Shown piece after piece: positions 1 through 1,547 of a stretch of 64,000 bases of DNA. Source of the stretch: Myxococcota bacterium. Its GTDB lineage: Bacteria > Myxococcota_A > UBA9160 > UBA6930. Positions within the stretch are counted from its first letter, which is position 1. Each line of letters starts with the position of its first letter. The stretch lies in NCBI GenBank assembly GCA_965223415.1, contig OZ245002.1, positions 2,496,001 to 2,560,000 of the forward strand. The letters are read 5' to 3'. Position numbers and translations under genes: made by a program. Below the pieces are notes generated by a model. That model was not told where the DNA came from. It ran no database searches and worked only from the letters and a program-made list of their open reading frames with translations.

Positions 1-89
1 TCGCAGCCTCGAACCGGGGCGTGCGGTACGCCACGGGGGGGAACACGGCCGAGCGATCTGTCGTCCTCGGCACTGGGAGGTTCAGTCAG

Positions 90-293
90 ATGGCAGCACG
101 AAGGAAGAAGGCGGCGCGCAAGCCGGCCGAGCTCATCATTTCCAAGGCCCGCACCAAGGCCGCCACGAAGAAGTGCAACGTCGGTGGCGAGTTCTACGAG
201 GCCCTCGACAAGCAGGTGCGCGAGCTGATCAAGGACGCGGAAGCCCGCGCGATCGGCAACAAGCGCAAGACGCTGAAGGCCGTCGACCTCTAG
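90..293 (+). CDS. Bacterial histone-fold protein (67 aa) with basic N-terminal tail
   Basis: GGGAGG RBS before ATG 90. The sequence ELIISKARTKAATKKCNVGGEFYEALDKQVRELIKDAEARAIGNKRKTLKAVDL has the size and C-terminal RKTxxxxD motif of archaeal/bacterial (Bd0055-like) histones. Confidence 0.8.
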   Translation: MAARRKKAARKPAELIISKARTKAATKKCNVGGEFYEALDKQVRELIKDAEARAIGNKRKTLKAVDL

Positions 294-305
294 GGTCGCG
301 CCGGA

Positions 306-351
306 AGAACGAGAGCCCGCGGGGCCTTGGCCCCGCGGGCTCTTTCGTTCT
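306..351. terminator. Bidirectional intrinsic terminator
   Basis: GAGCCCGCGGGGC/GCCCCGCGGGCTC stem with A-rich and T-rich flanks between convergent genes. Confidence 0.85.
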
Positions 352-1547
352 CAGTCCTCCTCTCCGCCCTCGTCCTCGCCGGTTTCCTCTTCGATGTGGA
401 CGGGGGGCGCGGCGCGCCCCGCCGCGCGCTCCCGGTTGAAGCCGACCCGGAACAGCCGCTCCAGGGAGACGCGGCGCACCACCTCCGCGCCCGGCCGGTC
501 GTGCTCGGCACACAGGTGGTCGAGGCCCAGGCTGGCGAAGCGCGCGGCCTTGGCGAGCGAGGCGGGGAGCGTCTCCGCGTCTCCCAGGTCGAGGTCGTCG
601 GCCACGGCCACCCGGTTGGCCAGGGTGAGGAACTCGAGCAGTCGCGGCCGCCGCTCCTCCTCCGAGAGCGCGGCGAAGGCGCGGAACAGGCTGTAGTCCC
701 GCTCGGCGACGGCCGGGAAGCTCGGCATCCAGACCGGGAGGGGCCAGTCCTCCAGGTCGAGGGCGCGCTCCTCCTCGGGCAGGTGGCCGACCTGGCCCTC
801 GTCCAGGAAGGCGTAGACCGCCTTCGCCTCGTCCAGGGGCGGGAAGCCCAGATCCTGCAGGCGCCCGCCGCGCCAACGCCGCGCCCACTCCTCGGTCTCG
901 GTCGGCAGCTCCCAGATCACCGCCTGCAGCAGGCGGAAGTAGAGCCAGTAGCTCTTCTGGAAGAGCACGCGCAAGAAGCCCAGCACCTCGTCCAGGTCGT
1001 CGTCGCTGTGCCGTGCCACCAGGTAGAACTGTCCGTCGATGGTCTGGCCGCCGGCGGGCGGGGTCCAGTCGTCGTCGCCGGAGGGCTTGAGGGTCACCTC
1101 CACCCGCTCCATCAGGAGCAGCGTCCAGGCCTCTGGATCGACGGCCTCCGAGGCGCGCAGCAGCGTCTCGTCGCCGGCGTCGGCGAAGGCCTCGAGCCAG
1201 CCCGCCAGGCGACCGCGATCCGGCAGGCCCGCGCGCCATCCGTCGAGGTCGATGCAGGCGGTGATCTGCTCCGGCGTGGCGTGCTCGAGGATCCACCCGG
1301 CGTCGGCCAGCCCGACCGCCTTGGCCGTGAAGCACAGCTCCGCCGGGGGCAGGCGCGGGATCAATCGCGCCGGCTCCGCCGCCAACCCGAGGAGCTCGCC
1401 GCGGCGGCCGACCGGGGTCTCGCAGACGAGGGCCACCTGGGCGTCGAGGGGGTGCTCGGCCAGGACCTCTCGGGCGGCGGTGCGGTCGGTGCGGGCCAGC
1501 TCCAGGATGCGGCGCGCCTGGGGCGGGGGAAGCAAGGGGGTTCCCAT
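351..1547 (-). CDS. DUF6178-like protein
   Basis: Helical protein with 'ATPEQITACIDLDGW' and 'RWRGGRLQDLGFP' motifs and an acidic tail. Start taken at ATG 1547. Confidence 0.7.
   Translation of the reverse strand: MGTPLLPPPQARRILELARTDRTAAREVLAEHPLDAQVALVCETPVGRRGELLGLAAEPARLIPRLPPAELCFTAKAVGLADAGWILEHATPEQITACIDLDGWRAGLPDRGRLAGWLEAFADAGDETLLRASEAVDPEAWTLLLMERVEVTLKPSGDDDWTPPAGGQTIDGQFYLVARHSDDDLDEVLGFLRVLFQKSYWLYFRLLQAVIWELPTETEEWARRWRGGRLQDLGFPPLDEAKAVYAFLDEGQVGHLPEEERALDLEDWPLPVWMPSFPAVAERDYSLFRAFAALSEEERRPRLLEFLTLANRVAVADDLDLGDAETLPASLAKAARFASLGLDHLCAEHDRPGAEVVRRVSLERLFRVGFNRERAAGRAAPPVHIEEETGEDEGGEED

Follow-up and report, generated by a model that had tools for sequence, protein, structure and literature searches.

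A histone with a basic N-terminal tail, predicted to be of the face-to-face type, is a core gene in one class of uncultured Myxococcota

INTRODUCTION

A short gene lies close to the left end of a 64,000-nt stretch of a Myxococcota genome (the window; G000:C1:2496001-2560000, in a host genome, G000, that is a single contig of 5.83 Mb with 71% G+C). It raises the question of whether these bacteria make a histone with a basic N-terminal tail, to which kind of histone it belongs, and what the tail may do. Bacterial histones have been characterised only recently. In-depth study is limited to HBb and HLp, and neither of these is basic-tailed. The α3 histones are split into face-to-face (FtF) tetramers, bacterial dimers and others in the classification of Schwab 2024, which records 'bacterial dimer' histones for Myxococcota_A and FtF histones for Myxococcota. 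There, the dimer category rests on clustering with HBb in CLANS, and a closed tetramer predicted with confidence served as the criterion for the FtF category.

RESULTS

The gene and its start codon

The gene (Table 1) encodes a protein of 67 residues, MAARRKKAARKPAELIISKARTKAATKKCNVGGEFYEALDKQVRELIKDAEARAIGNKRKTLKAVDL. The N-terminal segment and the C-terminal RKTLKAVDL given in a preliminary description of the locus are both found exactly in the translation, and the ribosome-binding site and terminator of its own that were attributed to the gene are in place as a GGGAGG box and a hairpin. Many long open reading frames overlap the gene in other frames because a composition of 71% G+C yields such frames. 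The frame at 90-293 is not a chance one; it has 1443 database matches and is found in 40 of the 41 genomes of the order.

Upstream of position 90 the frame remains open, and it contains a GTG at window position 21. Its translation on the 5' side of the Met is unrelated between loci and is conserved from the Met on (91 matches in the fetched loci). These matches collapse to 84 distinct proteins, the set used for the start and tail statistics, and in 18 of the 84 an in-frame stop lies at most 5 codons upstream of the Met. From codon 1 to V43 the codon list of the gene contains no further in-frame start (ATG, GTG or TTG), so that helix α1 cannot be made without the tail. An alternative start, whether downstream or upstream, is excluded by this lack of in-frame starts, by the unconserved upstream frame and by the upstream stops. 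The tail codons also vary synonymously among relatives, and the objection that translation begins beyond the basic segment does not hold.

The gene has a CAI of 0.74, with medians of 0.754 for the ribosomal cluster and 0.678 for the background, and it ranks at the 69th percentile of whole genes and at the 58th of length-matched 66-codon windows. This codon adaptation is unremarkable and is uninformative as a proxy for expression. Codons 2-5 (window 93-104) are GCA GCA CGA AGG, which are A-ending or otherwise rare in a gene with a GC3 of 0.91, and codon 2 is GCA in 62 of the 83 relatives' genes that have Ala there. Early codon choice of this kind suggests selection for a start of translation that is unstructured or rich in A.

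Table 1. Features of the histone locus and the HU/IHF-family genes of the host genome. Plain positions are those of the window; positions with the prefix G000:C1 are those of the contig.
Feature	Position	Strand	Basis or remarks
Sigma-70-type promoter, TTGACT-16-TACCAT	G000:C1:2495973-2496000	+	Motif scan; ends at the base before window position 1
Putative 5' untranslated leader	1..89	+	Transcription start inferred from the promoter
Shine-Dalgarno GGGAGG	75..80	+	9 nt 5' of the ATG
Histone gene	90..293	+	ATG at 90, TAG at 291-293; 67 codons plus TAG
Basic tail, residues 1-13 (MAARRKKAARKPA; 6 K/R)	90..128	+	Low pLDDT, conserved in relatives
α3-truncated histone fold, residues 14-67	129..290	+	AlphaFold model, structural alignment
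Bidirectional terminator hairpin	306..351	both	Common to the histone gene and the convergent DUF6178 gene
DUF6178 gene	351-1547	-	PF19676, 3.9e-72; convergent to the histone gene
Cytochrome P450 gene	2953-4188	-	PF00067, E 3.1e-29; 411 aa
IHF-beta gene (PF00216)	G000:C1:4735572-4735841	+	NCBIfam 128 bits (cut-off 115)
IHF-alpha gene (PF00216)	G000:C1:5002617-5002886	-	NCBIfam 134 bits (cut-off 111)

Transcription and translation signals

The promoter shows its -35 and -10 boxes and the T-tract before the -35 kept in 9 of 9 aligned loci from 3 genera, and the flanks diverge. The conserved form is TTGACT, a spacer of 16-17 nt and TAnnAT, in a lineage of 71% G+C. The leader would be roughly 80 nt long and has blocks conserved within the genus, for example AGCCTCGAACCGGGGCGTGC and a G-run. 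An Rfam scan that included the leader gave no family at gathering score, the matches being weak or hairpin-like at the terminator. All 84 relatives have a Shine-Dalgarno-like word no more than 20 nt upstream of the ATG, by a pattern that is lenient for GC-rich DNA. The hairpin sits between the stop codons of the two convergent genes (291-293 and 351-353) and runs into a U-rich stretch. Its folding energy is -42.3 kcal/mol with a z of -5.05, which none of 200 shuffled sequences equals, and the scan finds it terminator-like on both strands.

Fold and family

Scanned alone against Pfam and NCBIfam, the protein gives nothing above the cut-offs, so that the family is visible only through profile and structure searches. 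A phmmer search against the PDB returns weak matches to 9f2c (9.8e-4) and 9qt0 (0.019). Among 1448 candidates in a 90%-clustered collection, 1443 are relatives at E<=1e-3, and their labels include 'histone H3/H4' (JGI) and 'DUF1931 domain-containing protein' (NCBI). In a 50%-clustered library 128 representatives match, and 115 of these make up the alignment and profile A1. Against solved structures, A1 matches HTkC best (9f2c, 2e-15, 60 bits), then HLp (9qt0, 1e-11, 48 bits) and HBb (8cmp at 1e-9 and 8fvx at 4e-9, 42 bits), with HmvA at 1e-4 and NF-YB, HMfA and H4 weaker. Scanned singly against Pfam, 12 of the 115 members match DUF1931 (PF09123) weakly, 10 match CBFD_NFYB_HMF and one matches Histone.

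The AlphaFold model has a mean pLDDT of 84.2, with helix α1 at residues 19-25, helix α2 at 33-56, a single turn of α3 at 64-66 and the chain end at residue 67. HLp, HTkC and HBb take the top ranks in Foldseek with target-normalised TM scores of 0.74-0.85 and a probability of 1.00, HLp being first at 0.82-0.85; the E-values of 0.003-0.09 are short of the 0.001 line. In VIA-align the Z scores are 7.1-7.4 for HBb, 7.2-7.3 for HLp and 7.0 for HTkC, and about 5 for H3, HMfA/B and others. The model superimposes on HLp with an rmsd of 1.2-1.4 Å across 54-55 residues, and the rmsd is 1.2-1.6 Å to the α3 histones compared with 2.2-2.6 Å to HMfA and HMfB. HLp, HTkC and HBb can be aligned with it from one end to the other, the chain finishing right after the one-turn α3. 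Schwab 2024 gives as marks of the α3-truncated superfamily an α3 cut down to 3-4 residues and an α2 that is 4-5 residues shorter than the nucleosomal one. Residues R59, T61 and D66, which form the RxTxxxxD motif and the R59-D66 clamp, are invariant in the 115 sequences.

Profile search and predicted structure thus confirm the protein as a member of the α3-truncated histone superfamily in the classes of Schwab 2024. The doubt that the predicted structure might not be a histone fold is not borne out, since HLp, HTkC and HBb come out on top. Two other assignments were rejected. A nucleosomal, HMf-type histone has a full α3 of about 10 residues, which permits open-ended stacking and is absent here. 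A DUF1931 pseudodimeric histone, with two folds per chain and no DNA-binding signature residues, does not agree with a single fold of 67 residues that carries the RKT motif, and PF09123 does not match this protein.

Residues of the dimer-dimer interface

The tetramer interface of HLp brings R49, S52 and N53 of one dimer against F63, T61 and R55, and its RD clamp is R55-D62 (Hu et al. 2025, PMC12701072). The R45A mutant of HTkC is reported to lose the tetramer (2025 preprint), and Schwab 2024 describes the R and N of the dimer-dimer contact as missing from bacterial dimers. Alignments place R53 of the present protein at R49 of HLp and R45 of HTkC, where HBb has Ser. N57 falls at N53 of HLp, where HTkC has Glu and HBb has Asp. 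R59 and D66 correspond to R55 and D62 of HLp. R53 and N57 are each at least 90% conserved in A1. In the divergent singlets that could be parsed, the first position is R in 47 of 49 and the second is N in 49 of 49, under a parsing pattern that restricted the N57 position to N, G, D or E. These 49 are the representatives, among the 128, that were parsed as complete singlets; the other 79 are doublets, fragments, chimeras or too divergent and were excluded.

A four-copy prediction of residues 12-67 scores 0.89, versus 0.00 for the best of 3 controls. A mark of 0.89 is met by 20 of 30 proteins solved as one-chain pairs and by 1 of 23 solved as single chains, a calibration set from which this run differs by its four copies and custom alignment. 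The runs agree in at least 94% of contacts, with a partner pLDDT of at least 92. The scored copy is predicted to contact its dimer mate via α1 and α2, and the predicted contacts between dimers involve residues 52-53, 56-57, 59, 63 and 65-66, which is the HLp-type interface. The prediction may echo the tetramers already solved for HLp and HTkC. Taken by itself, the monomer fold does not tell the two types apart, as HBb, HLp and HTkC lie within 0.4 Z of each other.

On conserved residues and predicted contacts, the protein is likely to be of the FtF type, a nucleoid protein predicted to form tetramers. The FtF residues and the predicted interface put it nearer to HLp and HTkC than to Bd0055. The preliminary description had taken Bd0055 as the reference relative; by the defining residues this choice has to be revised, the nearest solved proteins being the tetrameric HLp and HTkC and not the dimeric Bd0055/HBb.

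Residues expected to contact DNA

In HLp the DNA contacts are made by A13-S14-K15, K17, K21, T27, G29 and T56-T57 (PMC12701072). The equivalents in our alignment with HLp are I17-S18-K19, R21, A25, V31, G33 and K60-T61. The protein retains the S-K pair, a basic residue at position 21, G33 and T61, and K60 is an added charge. Two contact positions differ, K21 of HLp being A25 and T27 being V31. HLp wraps about 60 bp and reorganises the Escherichia coli nucleoid (PMC12701072), and HTkC is reported to wrap and hypercompact DNA (2025 preprint). By analogy with these two proteins, the histone described here may wrap DNA as well. The preliminary description called it a nucleoid protein; profiles, AlphaFold and Foldseek bear out the histone fold, and the nucleoid role is plausible.

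The basic N-terminal tail

Residues 1-10 of the model have a mean pLDDT of 54 and no helix. Since no later start is available and relatives have stops just upstream, the earlier reading of this basic segment as translated is sound, and the segment is predicted to be disordered. The protein starts with MAAR or MAAK in 75 of the 84 relatives. Ala occupies position 2 in 82 of them and position 3 in 77, and K/R occupies positions 4, 5, 6 and 7 in 93, 95, 95 and 79%, with R and K swapping at positions 4 and 5. Conservation at positions 15-21 and 57-67 is partly by construction, the gene-finding pattern having fixed parts of both. Across 85 distinct gene sequences, the conserved positions 2-4 use all four Ala codons and six Arg codons, and this synonymous variation points to selection on the peptide. 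From the Met to the residue before LIISK the tail of the 84 proteins spans 8-20 residues (median 17), with a median net charge of +6 and 43% K/R (408 K versus 156 R).

The wider family is more variable. In the 49 parsed representatives the tail has 0-4 residues in 10, 5-20 in 21 and more than 20 in 18. Overall, tails range from 0 to about 48 residues with net charges up to +21, a few of the long ones looking like mis-called starts. P0144, P0149, P0167, P0170 and P0187 have the same core with K/A/T-rich tails of 32-48 residues and charges of +16 to +21, which presumably resemble the histone H1-like repeats of bacterial nucleoid proteins. On these sequences the tail thus appears as a freely evolving polycation on a conserved core in the wider family. 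Such free variation speaks more for a generic electrostatic role than for a sequence code. In the window's own order, however, residues 1-7 show unusual constancy.

The tail-less premise for bacterial histones was correct in part. Long tails are absent from most bacterial singlets as described in Hocher 2023, and tails are a frequent feature of bacterial FtF histones and mostly positively charged according to Schwab 2024. An FtF histone with a positive tail in Myxococcota has therefore already been published in general terms (Schwab 2024). Among the supplementary files of that work that were searched, none contains the accession or tail motifs looked for. In our literature search, no paper turned up that deals with this particular clade or with what the tail of a bacterial histone does.

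Distribution and gene neighbourhood

Of the 41 genomes of the order, 40 carry the histone gene, with G000 among them; most have it once, and it is single-copy in G000. An even sampling of the phylum gave 251 genomes with a completeness of 85% or more, and 68 of them match the histone profile at E<=1e-5. In the window's class 47 of 48 genomes match, each with an E-value below 1e-25; the other 21 matching genomes are among the 203 outside it, with weaker matches at 1e-6 to 1e-18. The tailed histone is a core gene of one class of uncultured Myxococcota. Named relatives are MAGs, mostly labelled Myxococcota or Deltaproteobacteria, with some other labels. The sole miss in the class is G033 (99% complete), which has other genes at the syntenic spot beside DUF6178; the absence is an apparent one, since the search left out 11,484 bases of this genome.

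Additional histone-fold arrangements occur as well. In G008, of the same family as G000, a single open frame of 167 aa contains two histone-fold matches separated by 16 nt (G008:C50:163422-163784, minus strand), and both span query residues 10-67. From the sequence, this frame is probably a fused doublet (pseudodimer) that replaces the tailed singlet. Distant representatives include doublets of about 120 aa as well, for example P0148, P0162 and P0166. Second or third histone-profile matches that are weaker (E 1e-9 to 1e-6) and cover core positions only occur in genomes of the order such as G091, G109, G132 and G256. They are possible tail-less paralogues beside the tailed core gene.

An α/β-hydrolase gene lies upstream of the histone gene, divergent and outside the window, and the DUF6178 gene lies downstream. 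A cytochrome P450 gene follows on the minus strand (Table 1). Of 92 loci, 75 have DUF6178 close to the histone gene and 59 have the hydrolase there, in a set with at least six duplicates of the same place and some incomplete loci. The DUF6178 protein is acidic and ends in EEETGEDEGGEED; its match in this class is confined to positions 1 to about 351 of the 561 in the model. We considered it as a histone-specific acidic partner or chaperone and rejected this. DUF6178 is present in 166 of the 251 phylum genomes, including histone-less families; in families f19, f21 and f28 it occurs in 23 of 24, 20 of 20 and 12 of 12 genomes, versus none of the 24, 20 and 12 for the histone. As DUF6178 is so common in Myxococcota that have no histone, its place beside the histone gene reflects lineage synteny rather than a functional pairing.

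HU/IHF-family genes

G000 has two PF00216 genes, one for IHF-alpha and one for IHF-beta (Table 1), and neither is near the HU cut-offs of NCBIfam. Counted as PF00216 matches, which are not equal to copy numbers and come from related genomes that are not independent, there are exactly 2 in 46 of the 48 genomes of the class, 3 in G032 and 4 in G033, and in the other phylum genomes (n=203) at least 3 in 181 and at most 2 in 22. The third match of G032 is a second IHF-alpha. The histone-less G033 has two extra divergent HU-fold genes that no NCBIfam model matched. In the three class genomes checked, the two-gene set is IHF-alpha plus IHF-beta. A third family member is present in each of two complete histone-less genomes, and its IHF and HU NCBIfam scores are about equal and all below cut-off. 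On gene content, this pattern fits a histone that stands in for the general HU-type protein in this class, and it would represent one or two evolutionary events.

DISCUSSION

Proposed mode of action

We infer the following mode of action for a presumably abundant protein. Two chains would form a handshake dimer through α1 and α2. Two dimers would then close into a ring-shaped tetramer via the end of α2, loop 2 and the one-turn α3, with R53, N57, R59 and the C-terminus at the contact. DNA would be held along the rim by S18-K19, R21, G33 and K60-T61 without sequence preference, and then wrapped as by HLp (about 60 bp) and HTkC. The disordered tail of 13 residues, with its six K/R, would project from the start of α1 on the DNA-binding rim. 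Most likely, it would supply extra contacts to phosphates and neutralise charge, which would increase affinity or assist the packing of neighbouring complexes.

Other readings of the evidence

A dimer-type histone like HBb/Bd0055 would remain a dimer and bend DNA rather than wrap it, and its tail would raise affinity. The structural score of HBb is level with those of the FtF histones (Z 7.4 versus 7.3 for HLp and 7.0 for HTkC), and the A1 profile does reach HBb at 1e-9, but its bits are higher for HTkC and HLp. The report of bacterial dimer histones in Myxococcota_A (Schwab 2024) and the presence, as S18-K19, of the S-K motif of bacterial histones (Hocher 2023) are also in keeping with a dimer. 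However, the contact residues R53 and N57 are highly conserved in the family at positions where HBb has S and D, and a confident dimer-dimer interface is predicted at exactly these residues. We consider the dimer type unlikely and favour the FtF tetramer. It is hardly credible that the protein has a histone fold but no part in organising DNA, in the manner of a DUF1931-like pseudo-histone or of an NF-Y-like partner of another protein. The NCBI label 'DUF1931 domain-containing protein' on some relatives and the weak matches of 12 of 115 members to PF09123 would speak for it, yet HLp has the same DUF1931 label in the PDB and binds DNA. The window protein itself has one 67-aa fold rather than a two-fold pseudodimer and is not matched by PF09123. 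In addition, its RxTxxxxD motif and RD clamp are invariant, and the HLp DNA-contact positions are largely kept.

The tail might instead be a regulatory platform of eukaryotic kind, in which Lys and Arg are reversibly modified to tune chromatin. The striking conservation of the first seven residues while their codons vary suggests selection on the peptide and not merely on charge. A Met-Ala start predicts removal of the initiator Met, which also counts for this reading. Nevertheless, R and K interchange at positions 4 and 5, the free variation of length and sequence in the wider family fits a generic polycation better than a code, and the adjoining genes, for the α/β hydrolase, DUF6178 and P450, include no writer, eraser or reader. 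A regulatory platform is improbable on this balance, and the post-translational modification raised in the preliminary description is purely conjectural. A bolder proposal joins the tail to the HU/IHF pattern. The tailed FtF histone would have taken over the general DNA-packing role of the third HU-family protein found in related lineages, and its near-invariant N-terminus (A-A-R/K-R/K-K-K, with the Met removed) would be an acetylated or methylated handle that tunes the packing. We regard this as a long shot. If true, control through histone tails would have a bacterial counterpart with an origin separate from that in eukaryotes. The electrostatic role set out above is the reading that we prefer for the tail.

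Significance

The near-universal presence of the histone, together with mostly two HU/IHF genes, makes this class a candidate for histone-based chromatin in free-living bacteria. The clade is also a natural series on one conserved core, from tail-less proteins through tails of 13 residues to tails of about 45, and it could serve to test the effect of a tail on a ring-shaped tetramer. The conserved tail and the two-HU/IHF-gene pattern are the points of most experimental worth.

Comparison with known histones

HLp of Leptospira perolatii (9QT0-9QT2, PMC12701072) has a single α3-truncated fold of similar length, with 29-30% identity across residues 9-66. The tetramer residues R, N and R and the RD clamp are kept, both chains end after a one-turn α3, and both N-termini are disordered. 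The short N-terminal segment of HLp, however, has a single Lys in its aligned part, with the first 6-7 residues unresolved in the structure described, whereas here there are 13 residues with six K/R. K21 and T27 of HLp are Ala and Val in the window protein. The hosts and neighbourhoods also differ. Leptospira is reported to be without HU and Dps, while G000 retains IHF-alpha and IHF-beta; the neighbours are SMC, MAP and DUF350 for HLp and the hydrolase and DUF6178 here. HTkC of Thermococcus kodakarensis (9F2C) is the best profile match (2e-15) with 32-36% identity, and its tetramer-essential R45 is R53 here. It differs in having E at the N57 position and an aligned chain without a visible basic tail. 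It is archaeal and coexists with nucleosomal histones.

HBb/Bd0055 of Bdellovibrio bacteriovorus (8CMP, 8FVX, 9EZZ) is bacterial and shares the α3-truncated fold (Z 7.1-7.4), the RKT and the S-K motif of α1. Unlike the window protein, it has S and D at the R53 and N57 positions and no basic tail, and it is a dimer that bends DNA as described in PMC12701072. The tailed histones of Asgard archaea and eukaryotes likewise have a disordered, K/R-rich N-terminal extension before the histone fold. They are nucleosomal, with a long α3 (Schwab 2024), and their tails are longer and in eukaryotes are modified. Nothing here shows a common descent of the tails, and the likeness to the window protein is one of a basic, disordered extension placed before a histone fold.
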